A stretch of 64,000 nt of DNA from Dictyostelium discoideum (lineage: Eukaryota): the NCBI GenBank assembly GCA_000004695.1, contig CM000153.2, positions 928,001 through 992,000 of the forward strand. Direction: 5' to 3'. The translations under genes and the position numbers were made by a program. Below the pieces are notes generated by a model. That model was not told the DNA's origin and did not search any database. It worked only from the letters and a program-made list of their open reading frames with translations. Positions within the stretch are counted from its first letter, which is position 1. Every line of letters begins with the position of its first letter. Positions 1,010 to 35,150 of this stretch are shown piece after piece.

Positions 1010-1555
1010 ATTCCCAGTGTAATTGAAAATATCTTTTTAAAGTGTAATGGAAAAAAAAATGAAAAAAATAAAATAAAATAAAAAAATAAAATAAAATAAA
1101 AAAAATAAAATTTTTTTTTTTTTTTTTTTCGAAACTGATCAAATCAGTGGGTTTTGAATTGTAAATTTATCTCCTATGAGGCTATTGGAGAGAATGGGGG
1201 GTGGTAGAGTGAGTGAACTTTCTTTAATTACCCATTATGGGAAATAAAAAAAAATAAAATAAAATTTATTAATAATAAATTAAAACAGTACAAAATATAA
1301 TTTTATTTATTTTTTTTAAAAAAAGTATTTTTATTTTTATTTTTTTTTTAATTTCAACAACTTTTTTTTTTTGAGTTATCCAATTTGACACAATTTTTTT
1401 TTATATCATTATTTTTTTTATTTTTTTTTTATTTTTTTTTTTTTATTTTTAATTATTCTTTTTAATATTTTTCATTTGTTAAAATCATAGTAAAAAAAAA
1501 AAAAAAAAAAAAAAAAATTTAAAAATAGTCAACTGGTGGAACAGAAAAATAAATA

Positions 1556-6081
<4,526 letters not shown>

Positions 6082-6311
6082 ATAAATTAATAATAATAAT
6101 AATAATTTATAAATTTTTTTTTTTTTTTTAAAAATAAAATTTAAGAAAATAAAGAAATAAAAAAATAAATAAAAAATAAATAAAAAAAAAAATATATATA
6201 TATTGTCAAAACCATTAAAAAAACAATTACAAAAAAATGAATAATAAATAATTAAATTCTAAAAAAAAAAAAATCATTTTTGGGTTTTTATTTTATTAAA
6301 ATAAGTCGAAA

Positions 6312-6369
<58 letters not shown>

Positions 6370-6847
6370 AAAAAAAAAAAAAATTGGATTCATATGTTTT
6401 TAGTTTTCAAATAATATTTATTTTTTATTTTTTTTTTTGTTTTTTTAAAAAAAAAAAGATTTTTTTATTTTTTTTTTTTTAATTATTTTTTTTTTTTATT
6501 TTTTTTTTGGGTTCAATATTTTATTTTAAAAAAAAAGTTTTAATTTTTTTTAATTTTTTTTAATTTTTTTTAATTTTTTTTTTTAGTTAGTTTGAAATAC
6601 CAGTTTCGATTGAACTTTTCCTTTTTTTTTTTTTTTTTTTCCCTTACTTTTTTTTTTTTTTTTATAAATTTCATACACTAAAAAAAAATAAAAAAAAAAA
6701 ATCCAGATTAAATGTGTTTAATTAATCAAAAAACAAAAAAAAAATAAAAAAACAAAAAAAATAAAAAAACAAAAAAAAAAAACAAAAAAAATAAAAAAAA
6801 AAAAAATAAAATAAAAAAATCAGAAAGTTCAAAATTTTTATAGATAA

Positions 6848-9361
6848 ATGTCTGAAATTCAATTTTTAAGATCATTATTTTTAAAATTAATTTTAATAAT
6901 AATAATAATAATAACAATAATAATAATTGATAACAATAATAATAAAATAAAATTTGTAAATAGTGCAATTATAAAATGGAATAATGAAACACTTGATATG
7001 GATTTTTTAGATCCATTAGGATGGGAGAATAATATTGTACCAAGTAATGAAGATGATGCAATAATTGATATTAATAATATATTGGTTGTTGGTTTAGAGA
7101 ATGAAATTCATATAAATTCATTACTACTTGAATCAAATTCAAGGATGGCATCAATTCAACTATTTACAACCAAAGATAATATAACCATTGGTATGAACTC
7201 ATTATTGTTATCAAAATATACAAAAGCAAGATTAATTTCAAATTATGGTAAATTCAATGGTCATTATCCAATTTCATCAATACAAGATACAATTGTCAAT
7301 AGTTTTGGTAATGCACAAGTTAATTTCATAAATTCCACTGAAATGATCGCAATAATTGAATCACCTTCAAACTTTTATCAAACTTCTCAAATTAACATTG
7401 AAAATTCAAATGCTTACTTTTATAATACATCAAGTATTAATTTATTCGATCAATCTAAAATCAATTATTTTTCATCATCAATTAGACATATCTCTTTTTC
7501 ACATATAAATTTATATAATAATTCACAATTTTCAATAAATAATTCAACTTTATTAATTTCAAATGGTAATCAATTTAATTTTAATGATAATTCAATTTTT
7601 ATTTCAATAAATAGTGATATTATAATTCAAAGTAATAATAGTATTTTTAAAACTTTTTCTACAACTTCAACTTCAAATTCTTCAAATTCAACAACTATTA
7701 AATTTAATAAAACAAATTTTTATTCAACAGATGGTGGTGAAATTTTAATTTTAAATAGAAATTTATTATTTTTAAATTCATTTTTAATTTCAAATGGTAA
7801 TAATTCAAAAACTACAATTAATGATGGAGAATTTAATATTATTAATCAATCAATAATTTATTCAAATGATGGTGGTGAAATTAATTTTAGTAATAATTTA
7901 AATTCAATTAAAGATACAATAATGATAACTCAAGATGGTGGTAAAATCAATTTATATAAAACTATAGTTACAAAAAATGTTTCAATTGAAATAACCGAAT
8001 TTCAAAGTAATTTAAATTTAAAACCATTCTCAACAATGAATTTAAATGGTGGTTCAAAAATTAAAATTTCAAATGGTGCAAATTTTTTAATCTCTGAAAA
8101 TAGTTTTTTAAATTTAACAAATAGTGAAATCTTAATCGATATAAATGGTAGCCTATTTCAAAATGGTCCAATTTTTTTAAATTCAAATAATAAATTTGAA
8201 AATAGATTTAAATTTTATTTATCTTCAAATATTTTAACAACAAATTTACCAACTTCTTCAACTTCAACACCATCAATAATACCAACAACTACAACTACAA
8301 CATCAACATCAACAACAACATCAACATCAACAACAGAATTAAAATCAATAAAATCAATAAATAATAATTTAATTAATAATAATGGTTCAATTATTATTAA
8401 ATCAAATAAAATAATTTTAATTAATATACCAATTATTAATAATGGTACAATTATTGTTAAATCAAATTGTTTCTTTTCAAATTATCATCAAAATAGTAAT
8501 AATTCAGAATTAATAATTAAAAATGATTCAATTATTGATAGTAATGAAAATATTCATTTAAAAGCTGGTAAAATCTATGGTACTGGTAGAATTAATACTT
8601 CGGTAATTCATGATTATGGTGAATTGGGTTCAAGAAATGTAACTGGTCTTTTAAATATAACTGGTGATTATACATTATCTGCCAATGGCTTGGTAGTGGT
8701 TGTTATAAATTCGTTGACTGATTTCACTCAAATTCGAATCAATGAAACTGCAATTCTAAAAGGTGATATTGAAATTATCGTTTCAAATAAAATTTCAACT
8801 ACAAAGTTAATTCAATTAGATGTTGTCAATTATCATGATTTGGATAGATATAGTATCACTTTTAGAAAGGTTAGATTTAAAACTTTTGATCCTGATACTG
8901 GTTTAGAAATGAATGGTCATGATTGTGCTAGATCAATCTCTACCGATAGATCTTTCTCTGTGGTACTCATTGATTGTCAATCTCCAATTTCAACTGGTGT
9001 TATCATTGGTATCGTTTGTGGTATTGTCTTGATTGTAATTGTTGTTGCTTCTTCTTATCATTTTAAAAAATCTTTATCAAATCGTATAAATAATTCTTCA
9101 ATTCTTATAAAATTAAAAAAATCAAAAACTAAAAATAATAATCAAGAAAATGATCAAGAAAAAGAAAATGAAAATGAATATCAAAATGAAAATCAAAATG
9201 AAAATGAAAATGAAAATCAAAATGAACTTGAAAATGAAAATGAAAATGGAAATGAAATTGAATTTGAAAATGAAATTGAAAATGTTAATGAAATTGAAAA
9301 TGTTAATCAAATTGAAATAACACAAAATAATAATGATAATGAATTTAATGTAAATAACTAA
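6848..9361 (+). CDS. Type I membrane glycoprotein, 837 aa. It has a signal peptide, an Asn/Ser-rich ectodomain with repeated DGGEI/NGG-containing units (beta-helix / Pmp-like repeats), one C-terminal TM, and a cytoplasmic tail of (ENENEN) repeats.
   Basis: Complete ORF. Hydrophobic N-terminus [18 protein letters not shown]. Repeats STDGGEILIL, SNDGGEINF, TQDGGKINLY, NLNGGSKIKI. TM is VIIGIVCGIVLIVIVVASS followed by KK. Confidence 0.7.
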   Translation: MSEIQFLRSLFLKLILIIIIIITIIIIDNNNNKIKFVNSAIIKWNNETLDMDFLDPLGWENNIVPSNEDDAIIDINNILVVGLENEIHINSLLLESNSRMASIQLFTTKDNITIGMNSLLLSKYTKARLISNYGKFNGHYPISSIQDTIVNSFGNAQVNFINSTEMIAIIESPSNFYQTSQINIENSNAYFYNTSSINLFDQSKINYFSSSIRHISFSHINLYNNSQFSINNSTLLISNGNQFNFNDNSIFISINSDIIIQSNNSIFKTFSTTSTSNSSNSTTIKFNKTNFYSTDGGEILILNRNLLFLNSFLISNGNNSKTTINDGEFNIINQSIIYSNDGGEINFSNNLNSIKDTIMITQDGGKINLYKTIVTKNVSIEITEFQSNLNLKPFSTMNLNGGSKIKISNGANFLISENSFLNLTNSEILIDINGSLFQNGPIFLNSNNKFENRFKFYLSSNILTTNLPTSSTSTPSIIPTTTTTTSTSTTTSTSTTELKSIKSINNNLINNNGSIIIKSNKIILINIPIINNGTIIVKSNCFFSNYHQNSNNSELIIKNDSIIDSNENIHLKAGKIYGTGRINTSVIHDYGELGSRNVTGLLNITGDYTLSANGLVVVVINSLTDFTQIRINETAILKGDIEIIVSNKISTTKLIQLDVVNYHDLDRYSITFRKVRFKTFDPDTGLEMNGHDCARSISTDRSFSVVLIDCQSPISTGVIIGIVCGIVLIVIVVASSYHFKKSLSNRINNSSILIKLKKSKTKNNNQENDQEKENENEYQNENQNENENENQNELENENENGNEIEFENEIENVNEIENVNQIEITQNNNDNEFNVNN

Positions 9362-11304: not shown

Positions 11305-13576
11305 TTAATTATATGAACCACCATTGTTGCTAAAGTATGGGTGATGCATTGAGTAATCTGATTTATCTTCTCTTCTATCATTACGGTTGTTACTGTAACC
11401 TCCATTACCACCACCACCACCACCATAACCACCACGGTTATCATCTCTATTGTGATGACTATTGTAAGATTTGTTGAATGGACTATTTGATTTTGAGTTT
11501 GATGGACCTTTAGACATACGGAGATTGTGTACCATCTTTTCAAACCAATCTGGAATATCTTGATTTGAAGCTTTCATTAATTTCAAAAGTTCAGCACCAA
11601 CTGGTTTATTCTTTTCATTGAAGAAGGAAATTGCTAAACCCTATAGTTGTAAACATAAAATAAGTAAGGAAATATACAAATTAAGAAAGGAAAATAAAAA
11701 GGTTAGTAAAGGTTTTTAAAAGAGGGCTAAATAGGCCCTAAAATGATGAGATTTTAATCTAAAAAGCACTTACTTTTTTTCCTGCTCTTCCGGTTCTACC
11801 AATACGATGAACGTAGATATGTATGTCGGTAGGCAAGTCGAAATTGATAACCAAATTAACATTACCGATGTGGAGACCTCTTGATGCAATATCAGTTGCT
11901 ACTAAGAATGGAGTTGCAAAAGAACGGAAAGATTGAAGTGCATTTTCTCTTTCTGGTTGAGTTAAATCACCATGAATACAGGTAGTTGGGAAATTTCTTT
12001 GATTTAAAAAGTAGGTAAGAGTATCACAAGAACGTTTAGTTTCAACGAAAATGAGACAAAGACCATCAGATTTCAAACCACTAAGATAATCTAACAAGTA
12101 ACTGTTTTTATCCTCTTCAACTACGTATTCAATTCTTTGTGTGATATTTTGAGTGGTACCAACAACACCAACTTTTAAGAAGATGTAATTGTAAAGGAAA
12201 TCAGCTGCAAGATTTTGAATTTGTTTTGGGAATGTAGCAGAAAACATAAGAGTTTGACGATCTCTACAACCTGGCATATCAAATTCAGAGATGATTTGAC
12301 GAATTTGTGGTTCAAAACCCATATCTAACATACGATCAGCTTCATCCAAAACCAAGTATTTAATTTTTGAAAGTGAAACACGACCACGCATTAAGAGATC
12401 AACGAGACGACCAGTTGTTGCTACCAAGATATCACAACCTCTATCTAATTCATTGATTTGATGGAAAACTTCTGCACCACCATAGATTACGACCGATGAT
12501 ACTGGTGAACCATAAGAGAATTTGTTTGCCTCATCAAAGATTTGTTGAGCCAATTCACGAGTTGGTGCGAGTACTAATGCACGTGGACAAGCAGCTCTTG
12601 GAACACCTGGTTTATAGGCTGGTGGAGCTTCTGGTGCTCCATCTAATAAAATACCGGAAATGATTGGGAATAAGAAAGCAGCGGTTTTACCTGAACCAGT
12701 TTGAGCACAAGCCATTAAATCACGATTTTTCAAAATGATTGGAAGTGCAGATTTTTGAACTGGAGTTGGTTTGGTGTATTTGGCATGTTTAATATTACCC
12801 AATAAAACATCACCCAAATCAACATCGGCAAATGAATTCAATGGAGCACAAATATGTTCACTGGTTTCAATGGAGATATCATCATCGTCGTAAGCATTGA
12901 AATCGATACCAATGTTGTCATCATTCTTTTTGAAGATTTCTTCGGCTTTGTGTTCTTCGAGATCAATGAATTCTCTTTTCATTTCTGGATGATTTCTTGA
13001 ATCTCTAAAGTTTGACCATCTATCGTAGTAACGATCATTTTTATTGGCTGGTTTACCAAAACTACTGCCACTTCCGCCTCTATTACCATAACCACCTTGA
13101 TTACCACCACGAGAGAATGAATTATTTGGTGAATAAGAGTAACTATTACCTCTTGGTGGGCCTTGTTCTCTTGGACCATTATCCCAACCACCGCTACCAC
13201 TACTACTACCACCACCATTACTATTATTGTTTCTTGAGAATGATGGACTTTTGTAGTTATCTCTACTGTTGTTGTTGTTATTAGAGTTATTTTCCCTAAA
13301 ATTGTTACCACCTCTGTAACCATCGTCACGACGGTCACGATTGAATGGTGAATCACGATTATCACGGTCAGATGGTGATGGATAATCGTCTCTTGATGAA
13401 CCTGAACTATTATTCATCTTGTTTCTACGAGATGGTGGGACATATGGTTCACTAGTTTGTGTTGTTGTTGTTGTTGTGTTGTTGTTTGATGAAGTTGACG
13501 AACTCTTATCAGAGATGGTTAACCCTGAGATATTCAGGGTAGTTCCATCGTTATCTTTGTTATTTCCAATTGGCAT
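11305..13576 (-). CDS. ddx3: DEAD-box ATP-dependent RNA helicase DDX3/Ded1 orthologue; join complement(11305..11640,11774..13576); intron 11641..11773 (GTAAGT...TATAG).
   Basis: Motifs [18 protein letters not shown] ([12 protein letters not shown]), [12 protein letters not shown]-terminal YVPPSRR matches human YIPPHLR. The terminal exon [36 protein letters not shown] matches human [30 protein letters not shown]. The tail is Gly/Asn-rich. Confidence 0.9.
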
Positions 13577-15633: not shown

Positions 15634-16382
15634 ATTTTAAAACAATTATTATTATTATTATTATTATTTTAACAATTTTTTTATTATTTATTTTTATTAT
15701 TTATTTTGTTTTTAGTAAACATGTTGTATTTGGTAAAGTTATTAAAGGAATGAGTGTTGTTAGAGAAATTGAAAGTCAACCAACAGGAGCAAATGATAAA
15801 CCAATTAAAGATTGTATTATTATGGATTGTGGTGAATTAAAAGAAGGTGAAGATGACGGTGTACCAGAGAAAACTGGTGATGACAAATGGGAAGATTATC
15901 CACAAGATGATAATGTTGAAGGTAATGAAGCAAACTTAAAAGTTGGTGAAGCCATTAAAAACATTGGTAATGATTATTTTAAACAAGGTAAATCATTAGA
16001 AGCCATAGCCAAATACAATAAAGCATTAAGATATTTAGATTGTTGTAGTAATATCGATGGTTTAAAGAATGTTCAAACCATTTGTTATAATAATATGTCA
16101 CAATGTTATTTAAAGGAAAAAAAAGGTTCCAATGCTTTGGTAGCTGCAAAAAAAGCATTAGAATTATCACCAAATGATATTAAAGCACTCTTTAGAAAAG
16201 CTAAAGCTTTATCTTTAATGGAGGAATATGATGAAGCTATCAAAGATTTCCAAAAAATCATTGAAACCGATTCCGAGAATAAAGATGCAAAACTTGAATT
16301 AGAAAGAATTAAAAAATTACAAAAAGCAAAAGATCTTAAAAGTGCCAAAGCTTATTCAAAACTTTTTTCTGATGATGATTAG
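15186..16382 (+). CDS. Cyclophilin-40-type peptidyl-prolyl isomerase (cyclophilin domain + 3 TPR); join(15186..15583,15716..16382).
   Basis: Exon 1 has [15 protein letters not shown] and [18 protein letters not shown]. The donor is GAT AA|GTAAGT. The acceptor TTTTAG|T restores [21 protein letters not shown]. The C-terminal half has TPR repeats ending ...[12 protein letters not shown], which is CyP40/PPID architecture. Confidence 0.9.
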
Positions 16383-16597
16383 AAAATTTTCTAAAAAAAA
16401 CACAATAAAAAAACAAATAAAAAAAAAAAAAATAAATAAAATTTTTTTTAATAAACAAGTAAAGATAGATTCATTTCATTTTATCTTATTTTTTAATTTT
16501 TCAGAGGAAATAATACGATTTAAAAATTTCAATACCTTCAGGTATTGAACCGATATTGAAATTTGGATTTGATTGTATTAATTTGAAACAATATTCC

Positions 16598-16767
16598 TAT
16601 GCTTTGGTAGCTGCAAAAAAAGCATTAGAATTATCACCAAATAATATTAAGGCACTCTTTAGAAAAGCTAAAGCTTTATCTTTAATGGAAGAATATGATG
16701 AAGCTATCAAAGATTTCCAAAAAATCATTGATTCCGATTCCGAGAATAAAGATGCAAAACTTATATA
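16598..16767 (+). pseudogene. Tandem partial duplicate of the last TPR-coding segment of the cyclophilin-40 gene, about 95% identical to 16131..16300.
   Basis: [14 protein letters not shown][D/N][28 protein letters not shown] encoded twice. ORF 16556..16861 begins in unrelated sequence and runs into A-rich read-through. Confidence 0.75.
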
Positions 16768-17249
16768 TAAGATTAAAATAAAAAAAAAAAAAAAAAAATT
16801 TTATAAAATATTAAAAAAACAAAAAATTTCTACCACACTCAAAATAGTATTACATGTTTGAATGATAATTTTTTCATCACTTTAAACCTTACCAATAAAA
16901 CATAACACCATAAACAAATATATTTTTAAAATAATTAAACCAAATTGCAAAAAGGTGTATTTTTTTTAAATTTTATTTAACCTAAATTTTGAAAAGGAAA
17001 TCAAGTATAGATTTGAATAAAAAATTTAATGGTAGTGTGGGGTGGTTGTAAAACTAATAACCCCAAAAATTAAAATTTTCCAAATATAATTTGTTTTTAA
17101 TAAAAATTAAAAAATAATTTTTTTTTTTTTAAAAAAAGTATTATTATTTTTATTTATCATAATAAATAAAAAGTATAAATAGGATAATTTGAAATTATAA
17201 TTTTATTAAATCAATGATTTGCATAATTTTATTTTATAATCAACTATAA

Positions 17250-17895
17250 ACTTTATCAAGATATTCAACTATTTACTGATAATATTGATCAAAATAAAGA
17301 TGGAGTATTAACTGCAGAAGAAATATATAATTCATTTTTAAAAAGTAAAATATTGAAAAAGAAAAAAAAATTAATATCACACTAATAATAATAATAATAA
17401 TCATAAAAATAATATTATTATACTAACAATTTTTAATTATTTAAAATATAAAAAAAAAAAAAAGAGATGAATGGTAATAAATATGAGGCATCTAAAGCTA
17501 CTGGTATTTTATGTTCAACAATTGATACAGACAAAGATGGTAAATTCTCTCAAAAAGAAATTGGAAAATATCGTTTTAATATTGCAAAAAAACAAATTGA
17601 AGAAAATTCTGATACTGCTGCTATAGCTGATGTTCAAGCATTGTTGTTAAGACTTGATACAGGTAAAATCCATCTGCTTAAATTCTATGTTTAAAAACTT
17701 GGAACATAATACCATAAAAATAAATTTAAACATTTTTTTTAATATAAAAAATCTTTTTCTATATTTATTTATTTTCTTTTTTTTTAAATTTCCTGTTTTT
17801 TTTTTATTTCCAAAATAAAAAACCTATTTTTAAATAAATATTGTTCTACTTTCACTGGATCACATTCTATTGATATTATTGATGTTAATCCAGGT
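17250..17895 (+). CDS. Small EF-hand calcium-binding protein, approximate multi-exon model. Exons are about 17255..17375, 17475..17667 and possibly 17888..17905. The 5' start exon was not located.
   Basis: Two canonical EF loops: [12 protein letters not shown] (about 17300) and [12 protein letters not shown] (about 17530). Donor AAAAA|GTAAAA. Acceptor A-run AG|AGATGAATGG. Donor ACA G|GTAAAA at 17668. Confidence 0.35.
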
Positions 17896-18221
17896 TGTAA
17901 GTGTCATTAAAAAAAAGATTTACCTTTCAAAAAAAAAATTTTTATGTTGATAATGTTTTTTAATTTTAATTTTTGGTCAATGGAAAATATTTAAAAATAC
18001 TTTTAAAATATTTATATATAAAATAATAACTTTTAAAAATTTTTTTTTTTTTTAATTAAAATCCCAAAACTTCAATTATTTTTTATTCCACACAAATTTT
18101 TTTTTTTTTTTTTTCATTTTTTTTTTTTTTTCATTATTTTTTTTTTTTTCAAGTTTATATAAATACTTATTTATTTATTTATTTATTATATATTATTATA
18201 TATTTTTAAAAAAAAAAAAAA

Positions 18222-26932: not shown

Positions 26933-28651
<1,719 letters not shown>

Positions 28652-28820
28652 AAAATAAAATAAAATAAAAAAAAATAAACTAAAATAAATTAATTAATAA
28701 AATTAATTAATTAATTAAATAAATTAAAGTAATTATTAAATTTATTTATTATTTATTTTTTTCTTTTTCTTTTCTTTTTTATTTTGCCAGATCCCATATA
28801 AAGATTTTAAAAAAAAAAAA

Positions 28821-28877
28821 GACAGTTGACGGTAGTTTTTCTTATGAAATGACTGTAGGGTTTGCTGTAAGGTCAAC
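28821..28877 (-). ncRNA. Class I RNA gene (Dictyostelium-specific 55-60-nt ncRNA family), intact copy.
   Basis: RNA sense: GTTGACCTTACAGCAAACCCTACAGTCATTTCATAAGAAAAACTACCGTCAACTGTC + T4. It has the conserved 11-nt CCTTACAGCAA next to a 5'/3' GTTGAC/GTCAAC stem. The DUSE TCCCACAAAA lies on the same strand at 28966..28975. Confidence 0.7.
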
Positions 28878-28965
28878 TTAATTATGTGTTAACTTAAATG
28901 TTTTACACATTTGAAAAAAGATTAAAAAAATTAATTAATTAAGAAGTTTTGAATAAAAAAATAAT

Positions 28966-28975
28966 TTTGTGGGAT
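28966..28975 (-). promoter_or_regulatory. DUSE (Dictyostelium upstream sequence element, [A/T]CCCA[C/T]AA) for the Class I gene at 28821..28877. Equivalent boxes lie at 30371..30380(-), 31731..31740(-), 32408..32417(-, CCCATAA variant), 33511..33520(+), 29435..29442(+) and 32533..32540(+).
   Basis: Exact consensus matches sit 70-95 nt upstream of each predicted RNA 5' end. Confidence 0.6.
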
Positions 28976-28983
28976 AGTTTTGA

Positions 28984-29018
<35 letters not shown>

Positions 29019-29185
29019 TTTTTTATTTTATAATTAAATTTTTCAAGAAATAATTAAGAATTTTTATTTATTTATTTATTTATTTATTTTTTTTTTTTTT
29101 AAACCAATTTTTCCCACCATTAATTACAAATTTATCAAAAAAATCAGATAGACTTGGAAATATTATTAATTGGAAAAAAAAAAAA

Positions 29186-29246
29186 GACAGTTGGTGAAGG
29201 ATCTCTTTGGATGCAGAGAGAGAGATAGAAATGCTCTAAGGTCAAC
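29186..29246 (-). pseudogene. Degenerate Class I RNA copy. The motif is mutated to CCTTAGAGCAT, the 3' stem half to CCAAC, and the DUSE position is mutated.
   Basis: Alignment to the other copies. Confidence 0.45.
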
Positions 29247-29509
29247 TTAATTGTTTTGTTATTCCTTTTCACATAATCAAATAAAATTCAAATTTTGTTT
29301 TTTTTTTTTCAGAATTTATAAACAAAAAAATAATTTGTAGGAGCAACAATAAAACAAAACTTCAATTCTTAAAAAATTACCAAATATTCTATTTTTAAAA
29401 CTTTTTTTTTATTTTTTTTTTTTTCATTTTTTTTTTTTTCAATTACCCATAAAAAGTTTTAATTCACTTAAAATTTGATTAATAAATTAATTTTAAATAT
29501 ATATCAAAT

Positions 29510-29772
29510 GGGCATATCAGGACATCGAGTTTAAAACCTATTCAGACTCCAGAATACAAATTAATTTGAGCGGCAACGTTCATATCAATCTGCACTAAAC
29601 AAATCATTAGAGGAATGATTGCAAAATCAAACCTCTGAAGGTTAAAAAAATGCTGAGAAGTAACAGCATTAAAAAAAACATTTAGACCATAGTTGAGAGT
29701 CTTAAAATCCAACCAGTTAGTAGAGACTAAAAATTTACAAAACCATAAACTCGATCTGATACCTGAAATGCC
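29510..29772 (+). ncRNA. Unclassified 263-nt DUSE-driven RNA, copy 1. It has a long 5'/3' terminal helix and a T6 terminator.
   Basis: DUSE ACCCATAA at 29435..29442, about 68 nt upstream. The 5' GGCATATCAGGACATCGAG pairs with the 3' CTCGATCTGATACCTGAAATGCC. An internal hairpin is TGCTGAGAAGTAACAGCA. It ends GCC+TTTTTT. It is 99% identical to 32597..32859. Confidence 0.55.
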
Positions 29773-29882
29773 TTTTTTATTTTTTAAAATCTTAATGGTA
29801 ATGGAAATAGTGTGACATACCTTTTTACAACAACAATATTATATGATCAGAAACCTACTTACAATAAAAGAAATTTAATAAG

Positions 29883-29921
<39 letters not shown>

Positions 29922-30241
29922 ATAATAACCATAAACTATATAAAAATATAAAATAGAACTTTGCAATAAAACAACAATAATTTATCAATTATAGATAGTA
30001 TTTACATCAAATTATTATTACTAATATTTATTTATAAATTTATTATTAATATTTTAATTATATTTTTAATAATATTATTTATTATTTAGTCATTTAATTA
30101 TTAAATCTTATAAAATATTAAAAAAAACTTAAGTTTTATTTTTTATTTTTTATTTTAATATCGATTAATAAACATATAATCGCTCAAGATTTTTAAAATG
30201 AGAGGTAATGATGGTCATCCATAACAAACAATTAAAAAAAA

Positions 30242-30301
30242 GACAGTTGACGGAAGGTTTTCTTAGAATGAAGGAACTGTAAGATTTGCTGTAAGGTAAA
30301 C
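30242..30301 (-). ncRNA. Class I RNA gene copy (5' stem variant GTTTAC), DUSE at 30371..30380.
   Basis: RNA sense: GTTTACCTTACAGCAAATCTTACAGTTCCTTCATTCTAAGAAAACCTTCCGTCAACTGTCT. Confidence 0.6.
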
Positions 30302-30572
30302 TTAAATGTTTTACACATTTAAAAAAGATAAATAAAATTAATTATTTAAGAAATTTTAAATAAAAAATAATTTTGTGGGATAGTGCCAACCAATAAAAAA
30401 AAAAAAAAAAAAAAAAAAACTCCATTCTCATTGTTTTATCAAAAAAATAATTAGGAATTTTTTTTTTTTTTTTTAATGATCTAGAAACTTATTTTTTTCA
30501 TCAATAATTACAATTTTACCTTTAATAAATTGGAAAATTAGATGATGGACTGGAGATATTATAAATAGAATA

Positions 30573-30603
<31 letters not shown>

Positions 30604-30700
30604 GTTCTGACAAATGATTTGATACCTGAAATGTCTTTTTTTATAATGACAAAAGAAATGGCATTTGTATTGGTAATGGTATTGGTAATGGTGTGACATT
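30604..30700 (+). repeat. Truncated copy of the 3' end of the 263-nt RNA plus its downstream flank (GATACCTGAAATGTCTTTTTTT...GGTAATGGTGTGACAT). It recurs at 31963..32030. A tandem 20-mer (CAGACCTGAAATATTAATATTT)x2.5 is at 30948..31005.
   Basis: Identity to 29752..29820 and 32842..32925. Confidence 0.6.
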
Positions 30701-31087
30701 CATAATAAATATTAAAAAAATGACTTCAGAAACTTGCCAACTCTTTTTAATTATTTCCCAAAAATTATGAAAATTAAAATTTATAAACAAACTATTATAG
30801 TTTTTTTGCCTTAATGTCCAACCTCTGATTAATCAATAAAAAAAAAATAGAAACTTAGTTCCAATATAAGAAGTTTGAGGAGTGAAAAAAAATACATTTT
30901 GTTTTATTGTTTTTTTTTTTTTTTTTCAGAAATAAAAATTATTAATATTTCAGACCTGAAATATTAATATTTCAGACCTGACCATTCTTATATTGGATGG
31001 TTTCTTAGATTTTTAATTTTTTAAAGAATAAATAATTAATTTTTTTTTGATAAAATACACCACCTAGGCTTTTTAATGATATAAAAA

Positions 31088-31146
31088 GACAGTTGATGAA
31101 GGTTTCTTTGAATGTAAGGAAATTTTAGATTTGCTGTAAGGTCAAC
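31088..31146 (-). ncRNA. Class I RNA gene copy without a recognisable DUSE (possibly inactive).
   Basis: GTTGACCTTACAGCAAATCTAAAATTTCCTTACATTCAAAGAAACCTTCATCAACTGTC. Confidence 0.5.
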
Positions 31147-31188
31147 TTTAATGTTTTTCACATTTTCTTAAAATGGTTTAAACATACA

Positions 31189-31247
<59 letters not shown>

Positions 31248-31584
31248 ATAATAACCATAAACTATATAAAAATAATAGAACTTTGCGATAAAACAACAAT
31301 AATTTATCAATTATAGATAGTATTTACATCAAATTATTATTACTAATATTTTTTTATAAATTTATTATTAATATTTTAATTATATATTTATTTAAAAAAA
31401 TTAAAAAAATTATTTATTATTTAATCATTTAATTTTTTTAAATCTTATAAAATATTTAAAAAAAACTTGAGTTTTATTTTTAATTTTATATTTTTTTTAA
31501 TATCGGTTAATAAACATATTATGGCTCAAGATTTTAAAAATGAGAGGTAATGATGGTCATCCATAACAAACAATTAAAAAAAAA

Positions 31585-31644
31585 GACAGTTGACGGAAGG
31601 TTTTCTTAGAATGAAGGAACTGTAAGATTTGCTGTAGGGTCAAC
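31585..31644 (-). ncRNA. Class I RNA gene copy (motif variant CCCTACAGCAA), DUSE at 31731..31740.
   Basis: GTTGACCCTACAGCAAATCTTACAGTTCCTTCATTCTAAGAAAACCTTCCGTCAACTGTC. It is a paralogue of the 30242 copy within a 1.35-kb tandem duplication (29.88-31.2 kb vs 31.2-32.3 kb). Confidence 0.6.
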
Positions 31645-32278
31645 TTATTTATGTGTTAACTTAAATGTTTTACACATTTAAAAAAAGATAAATAAAATTA
31701 ATTATATAAGAAATTTAAAATAAAAAATAATTTTGTGGGATAGTTTCAACCAATAATAAAAAAAAAAATAACTCTTTTTTTTATATTCTTATTATATTAT
31801 CAAAAAAATTTGGAATTTTTTTTTTTTATTTTTTTTTTTAATTCCTAAAAACTTATTTTTTCGTCAATAATTACAATTTTTCTTTACTAAATTGGAAAAT
31901 TAAATGGTAGAGATATTATAAGTAGAAAAAAAAAAAAAAAAAGATAGCCAACAAAGCATTTAATACCTGAAATGTCTTTTTTTATAATGACAAAGGAAAT
32001 GTTAATGGTAATGGTGTGAAATTCATTAATAAATCTATTAATTTTTATTTCCTGTAAAATCAATATTAAAAAAAAAAAAAAAAAAAAAAAATGTCTTCAG
32101 AAACTTTGGATGGCTCTTTTTAATCAATATTAAAAAAACCTTAGAGTTTTTTAAAGAATAAATAATTAATTTTTTTTTTTTTTTTTTTTTTTTGATTTTT
32201 TTTTTTTTACCTAAAAGCGGTGTATTTTTTTTTTTTTTTTGATAAAACACCTCCTCGGCTTTTTAATGATAAAAAAAT

Positions 32279-32338
32279 GACAGTTGACAAAGGTTTTCTT
32301 TGAATGTAAGGAAATGTTAGATTTGCTGTAAGGTCAAC
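32279..32338 (-). ncRNA. Class I RNA gene copy, intact stem, DUSE variant ATCCCATAA at 32408..32417.
   Basis: GTTGACCTTACAGCAAATCTAACATTTCCTTACATTCAAAGAAAACCTTTGTCAACTGTCA. Confidence 0.65.
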
Positions 32339-32596
32339 TTTAATTTTTTTCACATTTTCTTTAAATCTAAACATATAAAATTGAAAACATTTAAATTAAA
32401 AATAGAATTATGGGATTTGATCATCCTAAATTCTTATTTTCATATGAAATTAATAAAAAATAATTAATTTTGTTTGGAGATTCTTTTTTTTTTTTTTTCT
32501 TTTTTTTCTCAATTTTTTTTTTTTCCCAATAACCCATAAAAAGTTTTAATCAAATATCAATACCATTTTTAAATTTGAATTAAATATATTTTTGAT

Positions 32597-32859
32597 GGGC
32601 ATATCAGGACATCGAGTTTAAAACCTATTCAGACTCCAGAATACAAATTAATTTGAGCGGCAACGTTCATTTCAATCTGCACTTATCTAATCATTAGAGG
32701 AATGATTGCAAAATCAAACCTCTGAAGGTTAAAAAAATGCTGAGAAGTAACAGCATTAAAAAAAACATTTAGACCATAGTTGAGAGTCTTAAAATCCAAC
32801 CAGTTAGTAGAGACTAAAAATTTACAAAACCATAAACTCGATCTGATACCTGAAATGCC
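32597..32859 (+). ncRNA. Unclassified 263-nt DUSE-driven RNA, copy 2.
   Basis: DUSE AACCCATAAA at 32531..32540. Same sequence as 29510..29772 with 2-3 substitutions. Confidence 0.55.
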
Positions 32860-33591
32860 TTTTTTTTATTTTTTATAATCTTAATGGTAATGGAAATCGA
32901 AATGGAAATGGTAATGGTGTGACATACCTATTTATATCAACAAAAACAGTATTTTGTCTACAGAAACCTACTTGCAATAAAAGAAGTTTAAGAAGAAAAA
33001 AAATAATAATAAAAATTAAGTTAATTTGTTATAAAAATAAAAATAATAATTTAATTGATAATAATAAATAATATGTACATCATATTATTAAAAATAATAT
33101 AAATATTTATTTATTTACTAAATTATTTATTAATATATTTAATATTTTAAATTAAAAAAAAAATTATTTATTATTTTTTTTTTTTAAAATTGATTAATCA
33201 GTGTTTATCCATTAAAGGAAATAAACAATAGTTAAATAGTATTATGTATTTTATTTTTTAAGAAATTAGTTATAAAAAATTTCCTCAGGCCAGGATTATT
33301 TATTATTTAATCATTAAATTTTATTTTTTAATTATTTAATCTAAAAAAAACATATTATTGCCCATGAGTTTTTAAAATGAGAGACAATGACTGTTATCCT
33401 AAATAAATAAATTAAATAATTAATTAATTAAAAAAAAAGATAGTTTGGAGGAAGGTATTCTTAAATAATTATCAAAGAATTAGAGTTTTTAATTTTTTTT
33501 TTTTATTGAAATCCCACAAAATTATTTTTTATTCAAAATTTCTTAAATAATTAATTTTTTTAATCTTATTAAAAATGTGTAAAACATTTAA

Positions 33592-33651
33592 GTTGACCTT
33601 ACAGCAAATCCTGCAGTTCCTTCATTCTAAGAAAACCTTTCGCCAACTGTC
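33592..33651 (+). ncRNA. Class I RNA gene copy in opposite orientation (3' stem GCCAAC gives one A.C mismatch), DUSE ATCCCACAAA at 33511..33520.
   Basis: GTTGACCTTACAGCAAATCCTGCAGTTCCTTCATTCTAAGAAAACCTTTCGCCAACTGTC + T6. A degenerate minus-strand remnant is at about 33425..33480. Confidence 0.55.
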
Positions 33652-33785
33652 TTTTTTATAATTAATCATTTATTTTGGATAACCATCATTACCTCTTGTA
33701 TTTAATTCTTTAGCAATAAAATATGTTAATTTAAGTTTTTTTTTTAATATTTTATTATTTGTTTTTGTATTACTATATCAATTAC

Positions 33786-33820
<35 letters not shown>

Positions 33821-33971
33821 AAACCAAAGAATAAATAAAATATTATTTAACCATGATGATACATAAAAATTCTTTTTTCATATTTTAAATACCAACCTAT
33901 TTATTTGAAAGTAAACAGAAAAAACAAAATTAATTTATTCAACAATAATTTAAAGAAAAATTTTATTTAAA

Positions 33972-35150
33972 TTAAATTAAAAAAAAAACAATTGTAAAAG
34001 AAAAGATAATAAAAGAAAAAAAGGTTATTGAAATTTTACCACTTGAATTTGATTGAGTAGCTATTAAATTATCTTCATGGGTTGATTGACTCCCACTAGG
34101 ATCACTTTCACTAGAATATCCTTCAATAAGATTTGGATCTGGTGTTTTAGCTTCTTCAATAGAACCTGTAATTGTTGGTTCTTCAGTTTCTTCTGGTTCA
34201 TCATCATCTTCATCATTGTCTTCGTCATCAATATTTGGTTTTCCTTTATTCTTATTCTTATTTTTATTTTCATCTTCATCTTCATCTTCATCATCATCAT
34301 CTTTATTATTGTTATTATTTCTATGATTATTATTTTTATTATTATCATTATTATTTAATCTAGTTGGTTTTTTTGTTTCGTCATCATCATCATCATCATC
34401 AATATTTATTGGTTTATGAGTACGAGTTGGTGTTTTAGTTTCTTCTTCTTCTTTATCATCAGTACCAGCACCTGCTGGTCTACCATCACCATAAAAGAAA
34501 TGATGAGATTGTTGGGATGGAGATGGTGTTGATATTTGATGTTGGGTAATTGCTGGAGTAGTTTGAGATTTTGGTGAAATAGTTTCTGGTGGTTGAGTTG
34601 TTGGGGGAAGAGTCTTTTTAGGTTCTGGTTCAACAGGTTTTCTTGTTGTTGGTAAAGTTGGTTCAATTGATGGTTTTAGTGGTAAAGTTGGTTTTTCAGT
34701 TGGTTTAGTTAACGATTGTGAAAAGGTAGGTTTATTAGTTTCAACTATGACATTTGGTGTTACCTCATCAATACTAATTCCAACATTGATATTTTTTGGA
34801 ATTGAAACACCTTGTTTATAAACTGGTGCCGTTTCATCCAAATCATTTGAAGTTTGTTGGTAATAATTTTGATTGGAATAATAATCTTCATTATATGGAT
34901 TTTGTCTTGATCTTCTTTCACTACCATAACGACTATTGTGTCTATTACGTTGACGTGATTGTGGTTGTTGTTGATATTGTTGTTGGTGTTGGTGTGGTGA
35001 AGACCGAGTATATTCTCCAGTTTCCAAATTATATCCAAATCTTTTATAATATTCAATTTCTGATTTTGAATATGTTGCAGTTGAAAATTGTATTATTATT
35101 AAAAATACAAATATTACCGACATAAAAAAAAATGAATTATTTAATTTCAT
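33972..35150 (-). CDS. Secreted Pro/Thr/Gln-rich acidic mucin-like protein, probably GPI-anchored, 392 aa.
   Basis: N-terminal signal [27 protein letters not shown]-rich (PTLP/KPT) region. (D/E)-rich and NKNKNK repeats. C-terminal SSGKIS + hydrophobic tail [18 protein letters not shown] (omega-site-like). Confidence 0.6.

Follow-up and report, generated by a model that had tools for sequence, protein, structure and literature searches.

The RNA gene array at ~956.8–961.7 kb of chromosome 4 is almost certainly the published DdR-21/DdR-22 Class I RNA cluster of D. discoideum AX4, a known cluster for which the literature already gives the name, map position and read counts of every gene. Within the window, by which we mean the whole stretch of 64,000 nucleotides analysed (window coordinate = chr4 coordinate minus 927,999), an initial annotation had described seven Class I RNA units with DUSE promoters, six on the minus strand and one on the plus strand. 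The class, the promoters and the strands were borne out, and the seven units are six genes and one dead copy. In a covariance-model search with RF01414 (Dicty_Class_I_RNA), where membership was defined by the gathering score of 41.5 bits and a full-length match, six units scored 43.1–55.6 bits and covered model positions 1–56 of 56. All six are letter-for-letter identical to DdR-21, -49, -50, -51, -22 and -52 of D. discoideum AX4, and the spacings between them (1421, 846, 497, 694 and 1311 nt) are those of the published chr4 coordinates; the repeat length of about 650 bp given in the initial annotation describes them only loosely. The PGI protein flanking the cluster shows 100% identity to D. 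discoideum AX4. The genes and their promoter boxes are located as follows.

28823..28877, minus strand: DdR-21 (55 nt), RF01414 45.4 bits, exact match to published chr4 956821-956877
28906..28912, minus strand: TGTG box of DdR-21, sequence AAATGTG, first base 35 nt ahead of the mature 5′ end (Kjellin Table S2)
28967..28974, minus strand: DUSE TCCCACAA of DdR-21
30244..30301, minus strand: DdR-49, 45.4 bits, exact match, stem variant GTTTAC
30314..30320, minus strand: TGTG box of DdR-49
30373..30380, minus strand: DUSE TCCCACAA of DdR-49
31090..31146, minus strand: DdR-50, 48.1 bits, exact match, intact gene without DUSE
31159..31165, minus strand: TGTG box of DdR-50, kept despite the missing DUSE
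31587..31644, minus strand: DdR-51, 45.1 bits, exact match, motif variant CCCTACAGCAA
31673..31679, minus strand: TGTG box of DdR-51
31733..31740, minus strand: DUSE TCCCACAA of DdR-51
32281..32338, minus strand: DdR-22, 55.6 bits, exact match
32351..32357, minus strand: TGTG box of DdR-22
32408..32415, minus strand: DUSE TCCCATAA of DdR-22
33512..33519, plus strand: DUSE TCCCACAA of DdR-52
33573..33579, plus strand: TGTG box of DdR-52
33592..33649, plus strand: DdR-52, the sole plus-strand member of the cluster, 43.1 bits, exact match, 3′ stem variant GCCAAC

The six RNAs are 55–58 nt long, within the 42–65 nt of the Class I criterion, and carry the 5′-terminal G, the stem of ~6 bp between the 5′ end and the 3′ end and the 3′ terminus ...CUG that define the class. 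Directly after the 5′ stem half stands the motif CCUUACAGCAA, which is exact in five units and has one mismatch in DdR-51 and two in ddi_can_2, the seventh unit. The 11-mer CCTTACAGCAA occurs exactly five times in the window, always within 28.8–33.6 kb, together with single copies carrying one mismatch (CCCTACAGCAA at 31629) and two mismatches (CCTTAGAGCAT at 29231). With at most one mismatch, the 16-mer GTTGACCTTACAGCAA was found six times in the window, against 0.00 expected from 100 shuffles. The variants of stem (GTTTAC, GCCAAC) and motif claimed by the initial annotation are present in DdR-49, DdR-52, DdR-51 and ddi_can_2.

Promoter elements were found at fixed positions relative to the genes. 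Another Class I criterion is a DUSE ([AT]CCCA[CT]AA) that precedes the start site or TGTG box by ~60 nt. WCCCAYAA boxes lie on the gene strand 77–97 nt upstream (start to +1) of five units, the same number as previously noted at 70–95 nt; this distance arises because the known TGTG box sits ~60 nt downstream of the DUSE. No WCCCAYAA box was found upstream of the units at 31090 and 29188. The 8-mer by itself shows no enrichment in the window (12 copies against 9 expected); what carries meaning is only its constant placement with respect to the genes. At the 3′ end, each unit has CTG followed by TC and a T-run. Each gene would be driven by its own upstream DUSE, of which the position is seen here and the dependence comes from published expression data, and the T-run after ...CUG would end transcription.

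The DUSE-to-TGTG spacing is 58–62 nt in DdR-21, -49, -51, -22 and -52, whereas the distance from the TGTG box to the mature 5′ end is either 19 or 35 nt, the longer one being due to a 16-nt insertion. Because the first spacing is fixed and the second is not, the TGTG box is probably where a short 5′ leader, trimmed afterwards, begins. Alternatively, the TGTG box could be a proximal promoter element, with transcription starting at the mature 5′ G and no leader processing. This reading is left open by the literature (PMC7919456), and DdR-50, which has kept its TGTG box but has no DUSE, still yields some reads. We nevertheless regard it as rather unlikely: in other Dictyostelium ncRNA genes the DUSE precedes the transcription start by ~60 nt (PMC7919456), element X (see below), which has no TGTG box, begins 65 nt after its DUSE, and the constant spacing fits a start site at the TGTG box better.

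It is hardly conceivable that the units of CCTTACAGCAA plus stem are terminal or flanking parts of a transposon or another selfish repeat instead of RNA genes. It is true that the DNA around them is repetitive and includes fragments that are truncated or fused. However, a transposon signature is absent, as the 5.3-kb interval holds no ORFs and no tRNA targets, and no copies of the units are dispersed elsewhere in the 64-kb window. A promoter box at a set position and a T-run also accompany each unit, the units match an Rfam gene family, and exact identity shows them to be named genes that are expressed and have been studied experimentally. The interval had been called protein-free, which agrees with our finding: from the PGI stop (28651) to the next gene (33972–35150, minus strand) there is neither a substantial ORF nor a tRNA.

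For expression of the genes, we took the published RNA-seq read counts (Kjellin et al. 2021, Table S2) of precisely these genes. All six genes are covered by reads. DdR-21, the founding, most highly expressed and best-studied Class I RNA, has 0.8–1.8 million reads and DdR-22 has 0.30–0.58 million, followed by DdR-52 with 16,734–160,110 reads, increasing through development, DdR-51 with 1369–8213 and DdR-49 with 209–2872. DdR-50 has 69–117 reads, and some of these ~100 reads may have been cross-mapped from family members that are nearly identical. No reads were counted for ddi_can_2 in six libraries. DdR-22, with a DUSE, and DdR-50, without one but with its TGTG box, are paralogues in duplicated segments of 88.8% identity, and their reads differ more than 3000-fold. 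The series of intact, variant and dead copies postulated by the initial annotation thus matches the published counts, in which the copy without a DUSE falls 10^3–10^4-fold below its duplicated counterpart. That annotation had also described two copies with a missing or mutated box as decaying. The status of both boxes was correct, but the copy at 31090 is intact and lacks only the DUSE. The annotation had overlooked the TGTG boxes, an eighth, degenerate remnant and a DUSE-linked element of 264 nt that is present twice. Degenerate copies and fragments of Class I genes are listed here.

29188..29246, minus strand: ddi_can_2, dead Class I copy with motif CCTTAGAGCAT and 3′ stem half CCAAC
29335..29342, minus strand: mutated DUSE TCCTACAA of ddi_can_2, read from the sequence
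33431..33493, minus strand: eighth, degenerate Class I remnant, 3′ half recognisable, 11-nt motif lost
30592..30639, no strand assigned: fusion remnant, Class I 3′-end fragment GACAGTTCTGAC (minus sense) with an X end and T-run

Copy ddi_can_2 corresponds to a published candidate (chr4 957188-957246) that Kjellin et al. 2021 did not accept among the Class I loci. We consider it dead because it scores only 14.4 bits on RF01414, below the gathering score, its DUSE is mutated, a TGTG box is absent and RNA-seq reads are lacking. That all seven units, or eight including the remnant, are functional Class I genes is very improbable. The seventh unit retains the 5′ GTTGAC, 9 of 11 motif positions, the 3′ CTG and the T-run, and it reached 38–45 bits in early covariance models (Kjellin et al.). 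Against this stand the features just named and a score of 27.1 on the final published model, and the eighth remnant is without the 11-nt motif. The latter aligns to the DdR-49 region with a local score of 50 (shuffle mean 21, 0/500), and homology is also seen in the flank (33314–33419 to 30129–30239). In the fusion remnant, the Class I fragment is joined to the final 24 nt of X (plus sense); its Class I part is marginal, as 8 of 500 shuffles scored as well.

Much of the array consists of duplicated DNA. Self-BLAST aligned 29865–30674 with 31193–32015 (83.5% over 856 nt) and 31040–31198 with 32232–32387 (88.8% over 161 nt). The tandem block previously given as 1.35 kb is therefore a real duplication of 1.3 kb with 84–89% identity.

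29865..31198, no strand assigned: duplicated block, first copy, carrying DdR-49 and DdR-50
31193..32387, no strand assigned: duplicated block, second copy, carrying DdR-51 and DdR-22

The array most likely grew by local duplication of units and of the 1.3-kb two-gene block, with later divergence, and the copies without their DUSE are near-silent (DdR-50) or dead and decaying (ddi_can_2 and the remnant at 33.43–33.49 kb). Homopolymer runs of A24–A60 break up the locus and AT-rich repeats are difficult to assemble, so that one might think of an assembly artefact, with a smaller cluster and collapsed or mis-joined copies. The chance of this is minimal: the independent chromosome-scale assembly L001 (GCA_054883475.1) reproduces the same genes in the same order with 0 substitutions over 5.4 kb and only eight differences, all in homopolymer length, and the repeat copies are 73–89% identical instead of fully identical.

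Each of the six small, independent genes encodes an RNA of 55–58 nt in which the first six and the last-but-two six bases can pair, and the paired ends would leave the invariant CCUUACAGCAA motif unpaired beside the stem. In the covariance-model alignments, complementarity of the terminal stem is 6/6 in DdR-21, -51 and -22 and 5/6 in DdR-49, -50 and -52. The folding check proposed in the initial annotation gave a divided result. Single-sequence MFE folding recovered the terminal stem in only three of seven units (DdR-21, DdR-51 and partly ddi_can_2) and not in the others, and only DdR-51 folded significantly better than shuffled sequences (z -2.2). Support for the stem therefore comes from complementarity, from the covariance model and from covariation and probing in the literature; it does not come from thermodynamics. 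Most likely, the 11-nt motif is a platform for protein or RNA binding that is held out by the stem. As cited in PMC7919456 (Avesson 2011, Aspegren 2004), Class I RNAs are abundant, located mostly in the cytoplasm and regulated during development; DdR-21 has the RRM protein Rnp1A/CIBP as a binding partner, and disrupting DdR-21 upsets early development and gives more, smaller fruiting bodies. In view of this phenotype and binding partner, the earlier statement that the function is still unknown was too strong.

Between the Class I genes, we found two copies of an element, X.

29445..29452, plus strand: DUSE ACCCATAA of X1, 65 nt before X1, start to start
29510..29773, plus strand: element X1, structured candidate ncRNA of ~264 nt, then a T-run
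32532..32539, plus strand: DUSE ACCCATAA of X2
32597..32860, plus strand: element X2, 98.5% identity to X1 over the body, with diverging flanks

The plus strand of X1 is suggested by the DUSE and the T-run. With Class I, X shares the DUSE, a 5′ GGGC start and a 5′/3′ terminal stem, which in X comprises 21 pairs in three segments. On the other hand, it has no TGTG box, no CCUUACAGCAA motif and no RF01414 match, and its ~264 nt compare with 42–65 nt for Class I, or up to ~140 nt for DdR-66/67. Among the Rfam families searched (SRP, RNase P/MRP, U3, snRNA, snoRNA and others), the best match was IMES-2 with 24.2 bits (gathering score 54.7), and all others were at or below 21 bits, even with just 296 nt searched. 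An anonymous single-exon lncRNA of Rosengarten et al. 2017 (chr4:957505-957898; PMC5295588, File S4) overlaps X1; on the left it ends at window 29506, 4 nt away from where the conserved X body begins (29510). The entry gives this lncRNA a length of 393 nt and the minus strand, whereas X is ~264 nt and probably plus-strand, and it notes no structure, promoter or paralogue. The ID column of File S4 is inconsistent with another file of PMC5295588. We tentatively propose that X could be an undescribed family of DUSE-driven, highly structured ncRNA genes of ~264 nt, confined to the D. discoideum species complex, whose DUSE-less copies decay, as in L003_Xa.

Comparison with other genomes showed that the cluster is structurally polymorphic across the D. 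discoideum complex, a new but minor point. Strain L004 of D. discoideum carries a DdR-24-identical gene within the cluster, D. citrinum has only a truncated relic, and in three other species the syntenic site has no cluster. DdR-50 is identical in sequence to DfiR-12 of D. firmibasis. The position of DdR-21 beside PGI is a stable anchor, while the rest of the cluster turns over between strains. Anchor, strain turnover and D. citrinum relic add little. A second chr4 cluster (~1.66–1.68 Mb; DdR-23A/B/C, DdR-24A/B, DdR-26) is likewise a local two-strand array of close relatives and has the same two types, DdR-22/23/50 and DdR-24/26/49/51. It contains identical copies (23A=B=C, 24A=B), whereas no two genes of the present cluster are identical. 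D. discoideum snRNA gene pairs also have the DUSE ~60 nt upstream and close relatives in tight pairs (PMC7919456), but snRNAs, unlike Class I RNAs, are universal spliceosomal RNAs.

For the six genes, sequence, order, spacing, strand, DUSE and TGTG boxes are identical to those of the published cluster, and with all of them already catalogued the array as such matters little. Also present in the window are ddi_can_2, another remnant and element X. That the leader comes in two lengths (19 and 35 nt after the TGTG box) is relevant to whether this box is the start site, and the DdR-22/DdR-50 pair provides a clean natural comparison of the presence and absence of a DUSE. If the proposal for X is true, the ‘Class I cluster’ would be a mixed array of two ncRNA families, and its duplication unit would be a divergent Class I/X gene pair.

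The 11-nt motif that marks Class I RNAs, CCTTACAGCAA, occurs in five exact copies in the 64-kb window, every one within 28.8-33.6 kb, and one copy with a single mismatch and one with two mismatches lie in the same segment. For the 16-mer GTTGACCTTACAGCAA, allowing up to one mismatch, six matches were observed in the window compared to none in 100 shuffles. The interval is bounded by the stop codon of the glucose-6-phosphate isomerase (PGI) ORF (26966-28651, plus strand) and by a minus-strand gene (33972-35150). Scanning from the PGI stop codon to 33972 revealed no substantial ORF and no tRNA. The initial annotation had placed seven Class I units here, five of them with a DUSE promoter box ([AT]CCCA[CT]AA); the boxes, the T-runs, the strand of each unit and the variants of stem and motif were all re-found in the sequence. 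The covariance-model search that it had proposed, performed with Rfam 15 at gathering thresholds, yielded six matches and no more across the window, each full-length and each to RF01414 (Dicty_Class_I_RNA), with scores of 43.1-55.6 bits (cut-off 41.5 bits). When compared with the D. discoideum Class I gene set curated by Kjellin et al. 2021 (PMC7919456; supplementary FASTA and BED files), these six units proved to match DdR-21, DdR-49, DdR-50, DdR-51, DdR-22 and DdR-52 exactly and in the same order. The seventh unit is the published candidate ddi_can_2. A 7.5-kb search with E<=10 still found no RF01414 match to it, and searched alone it scores only 14.4 bits; it reached a final CM score of 27.1 in Kjellin et al. 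2021 and was not accepted there as a Class I locus (PMC7919456). Permissive Rfam searches of the 7.5-kb region, of ddi_can_2 alone and of element X (see below) alone showed no additional families.

Class I units of the cluster. All except ddi_can_2 are RF01414 matches (Rfam 15) and exact matches to published genes. Read ranges, DUSE and TGTG box (AAATGTG) are from Table S2 of PMC7919456, which gives classifier features and RNA-seq counts per unit at 0, 4 and 8 h in duplicate (six libraries).
28823-28877, minus strand: DdR-21; 811,952-1,789,186 reads; DUSE TCCCACAA; TGTG present
29188-29246, minus strand: ddi_can_2 (chr4 957,188-957,246); 0 reads in all six libraries; DUSE mutated, TCCTACAA; TGTG degenerate, AAATTTG
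30244-30301, minus strand: DdR-49; 209-2,872 reads; DUSE TCCCACAA; TGTG present
31090-31146, minus strand: DdR-50 (48.1 bits); 69-117 reads; no DUSE; TGTG kept
31587-31644, minus strand: DdR-51; 1,369-8,213 reads; DUSE TCCCACAA; TGTG present
32281-32338, minus strand: DdR-22; 300,526-575,264 reads; DUSE TCCCATAA; TGTG present
33592-33649, plus strand: DdR-52; 16,734-160,110 reads, increasing through development; DUSE TCCCACAA; TGTG present

The inter-gene spacings of 1421, 846, 497, 694 and 1311 nt equal the published chromosome 4 spacings (DDB0232431: 956,821-961,649), so that subtracting 927,999 from a chromosome 4 position gives the window position. PGI, the flanking protein, shows 100% identity to its D. 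discoideum AX4 counterpart. An independent, chromosome-scale D. discoideum assembly (GCA_054883475.1) carries the same cluster, the 5.4-kb interval differing by eight homopolymer-length changes and no substitution, which excludes an assembly artefact. These homopolymer differences include positions 28985, 30395, 31194-31246, 32068, 32170 and 33790 (for example, 24 fewer A at 31194) and could be sequencing or assembly noise or true length polymorphism. The observation of a Class I array is thus accurate and its interpretation supported, but both the literature and Rfam already list the locus in full, and there is nothing new in the gene array itself.

The proposed series of intact, variant and dead copies agrees with the published read counts per unit. 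One assignment within it has to be changed: the copy at 31088, which had been described as decaying, is DdR-50, whose sequence is intact and identical to that of D. firmibasis DfiR-12. DdR-50 is promoter-less, not decaying. Its paralogue DdR-22 lies in the other copy of a duplicated block, the segments that hold the two genes being 88.8% identical, and the read counts of DdR-22 (with DUSE) and DdR-50 (without DUSE) are more than 3000-fold apart. This contrast agrees with the published conclusion that the DUSE is required. The annotated distance of 70-95 nt from DUSE to RNA is accounted for by a known element that the description lacked, the TGTG box, which in Class I genes of D. discoideum follows the DUSE at ~60 nt (PMC7919456). 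All six Class I genes of the locus carry it, with a DUSE-to-TGTG distance of 58-62 nt (start to start). The spacing from TGTG to RNA takes two values, 19 nt (DdR-49, -50, -22 and -52) and 35 nt (DdR-21 and -51), the longer one due to a 16-nt insertion. In other Dictyostelium ncRNA genes the DUSE lies ~60 nt from the start site (PMC7919456). We infer that the TGTG box may be the start of a short 5′ leader that would later be trimmed; this reading is favoured because the DUSE-TGTG spacing is fixed, the downstream spacer is variable and the DUSE-to-start distance of other ncRNA genes is similar.

Folding of each copy, also proposed in the initial annotation, recovered the terminal stem only in part. 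By single-sequence MFE prediction it appears in DdR-21, DdR-51 and ddi_can_2 (4 bp in the latter) and not in the remaining units, and the z-scores of the seven units range from -2.2 to +0.6, with DdR-51 alone being significant. Such poor recovery is expected when only 6 bp close a loop of ~45 nt. Support for the stem comes from direct complementarity (6/6 or 5/6) and from the RF01414 covariance model, and PMC7919456 reports in vitro probing of DdR-21 as well as covariation among Dictyostelia. Citing Aspegren 2004 and Avesson 2011, the same paper describes Class I RNAs as abundant, chiefly cytoplasmic and developmentally regulated, with direct binding of DdR-21 to the RRM protein Rnp1A (CIBP); when the DdR-21 gene is disrupted, early development is disturbed and fruiting bodies become smaller and more numerous. 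Most likely, the stem exposes the 11-nt motif, invariant and unpaired, as a putative binding platform.

Self-comparison of the window re-found the annotated tandem duplication of a ~1.3-kb block, in two segments: 29865-30674 versus 31193-32015 (83.5% over 856 nt) and 31040-31198 versus 32232-32387 (88.8%). Each block contains one DdR-24/26-type gene (DdR-49, DdR-51) and one DdR-22/23-type gene (DdR-50, DdR-22). The units of DdR-21 (28812-29089) and DdR-51 (31576-31843) align with each other at 81%. A repeat length of about 650 bp, as annotated, is only approximate, with gene spacings of 497-1421 nt. A degenerate eighth Class I remnant lies back to back with the DdR-52 DUSE; neither its 5′ stem nor its 11-nt motif is preserved, and its alignment to the DdR-49 region scores 50 (shuffle mean 21), a value reached by none of 500 shuffles.

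Outside the description given by the initial annotation, the interval contains two copies of a ~264-nt conserved sequence (element X), each with a ACCCATAA DUSE 65 nt upstream. The bodies begin with GGGCATATCAGG and finish with CCTGAAATGCC, followed by a T-run. They differ from each other at four positions; the spacer between DUSE and start and the 3′ flank are divergent, with indels. Both copies lie within a further repeat (29402-30087 versus 32487-33176, 80% over 719 nt).

Element X, its fragments and the Class I remnant in the window.
29510-29773 (29445-29776 with DUSE), putatively plus strand: X1, ACCCATAA DUSE at 29445
32597-32860 (32532-32863 with DUSE), putatively plus strand: X2, ACCCATAA DUSE at 32532
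30616-30639 and 31963-31980: 3′ fragments of X (last 18-24 nt and T-run)
~33431-33493, minus strand: eighth Class I remnant, 3′ half aligning to the DdR-49 region
29797-29825, 30668-30700, 31995-32020 and 32894-32925: GGTAATGG/GGAAATGG runs

The fragment at 30616-30639 adjoins a short sequence, GACAGTTCTGAC, resembling the 3′ terminus of a Class I gene on the minus strand, and the fused stretch covers 30592-30639. This adjacency suggests a divergent Class I/X pair as the original unit of the repeats, with a deletion derivative of it being duplicated afterwards; the deletion across the pair would then be older than the 1.3-kb duplication. A microsatellite-like GGTAATGG/GGAAATGG run, ending in a conserved GTGTGACAT, is found 3′ of every X copy or fragment.

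X is predicted to fold with -65 kcal/mol (z = -6.0 and -5.7) into two GCAA-capped hairpins and a terminal stem whose 21 pairs fall into three segments. No Rfam family was assigned to it, even with a search space of only 296 nt; matches to IMES-2 and SAM-II were far under the gathering scores and are taken as chance. An origin as a SINE or from a tRNA was rejected, as no tRNA-like match, A-tail or dispersed copies were found. The only ORF is a 56-codon minus-strand frame without ATG (TTG start, bacterial code), and indels between copies and strains are not multiples of three, which argues that X is non-coding. Covariation is sparse (a double change in 1 of 72 pairs), because the copies are 82-100% identical. 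X may have been described previously in Aspegren 2004, Hinas 2006 or Avesson 2012.

A curated single-exon lncRNA (chr4:957,505-957,898, minus strand; Rosengarten et al. 2017, PMC5295588) corresponds to window 29506-29899, so the region of X1 is transcribed. The left end of this lncRNA lies ~60 nt downstream of the DUSE, 4 nt away from where the X body starts. The libraries of that study were strand-specific and restricted to unique mappers (PMC5295588). Predicted folding is similarly strong on the two strands of X (z = -6.0 and -5.6), and the asymmetry of G-U versus C-A pairs shows each strand's predicted structure favouring its own wobbles, with 2-3 versus 1-3 for the 33 common pairs. Our putative assignment of X to the plus strand rests on the position of the DUSE and the T-run, against the published minus-strand listing. 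In supplementary files 15 and 19 of PMC5295588, CUFF_3634_1 is tied to chr4:957505-957898 and, in the other table, to chr4:3512767-3514108; the ID and DDB_G labels of the lncRNA table appear to be scrambled relative to the coordinates.

Syntenic loci from seven further genomes were located through PGI orthologues. The gene order granulin, PGI, low-complexity gene, TPR protein, Arf/Ras is kept in the five closest genomes (L002-L006); D. firmibasis has one additional gene call between PGI and TPR, and the D. purpureum contig stops short of the TPR gene. The PGI-to-TPR interval spans 3.4-9.4 kb across genomes. Among these loci, Class I genes at the Rfam gathering score were found only in the D. 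discoideum complex, with three in L002, six in L003 and four in L004. The DdR-21 orthologue is always the first gene after PGI (exact in L004, 52/55 identical in L002 and L003) and is tandemly doubled in L002. Beyond it, the cluster (11690-19000 in L002-L004 versus 28650-33970 in the window) varies in gene number, orientation and type. Genes identical to DdR-24 and DdR-25, both located elsewhere in AX4, are part of the L004 and L003 clusters, respectively. Copies lacking a DUSE occur at 16996 in L003 and at 16119 in L004. Judged from these sequences, the complex shows structural polymorphism of the cluster, whose number of Class I genes varies from 3 to 6. X is present in every D. discoideum-complex locus examined, in 1-3 intact copies that all have a DUSE and all lie inside the cluster, and was not found in the loci of other species nor elsewhere in the window.

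Copies of X and a Class I relic in other genomes.
L002 12911-13174: X
L003 14409-14672, 16462-16726 and 18600-18863 (minus strand): X
L003 12288-12538, plus strand: decayed X, DUSE mutated, ACCCTGAA
L004 12363-12626 and 14604-14866: X
L005 (D. citrinum) 11940-12075, minus strand: truncated relic of the DdR-21 orthologue (exact-motif scan)

The decayed copy in L003 is the sole X copy with a mutated DUSE and the most diverged one (82%), and holds 11 of the 22 broken pairs. The D. citrinum sequence keeps the DUSE TCCCACAA and, 78 nt on, GTTGACCTTACAGCAAATCTTA, followed by A-rich sequence that replaces the 3′ half; it has no 3′ stem and stays below any Rfam threshold, and is thus a truncated relic. 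Rfam and motif scans showed nothing of Class I at the syntenic site of D. dimigraforme, D. firmibasis and D. purpureum. No Class I gene lies within 10 kb of PGI in CM069766.1, a chromosome-level sequence of D. firmibasis, so DfiR-12 is not at the position syntenic to DdR-50, a question that Kjellin et al. could not assess (PMC7919456). In three assemblies, automatic protein gene models (L001, the second D. discoideum assembly, 15870-18116; L003 13636-20417; L004 12395-17674) stretch the downstream low-complexity gene over the ncRNA cluster via long ‘introns’ and are probably annotation artefacts.

The locus comparison agrees with the published picture of fast Class I turnover and little synteny, and is new but minor. 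Strain-to-strain turnover of the cluster is one of the remaining points of interest, and element X is part of the residual interest of the locus. Additionally, the locus supplies natural comparisons of genes with and without a DUSE and of short and long leaders.
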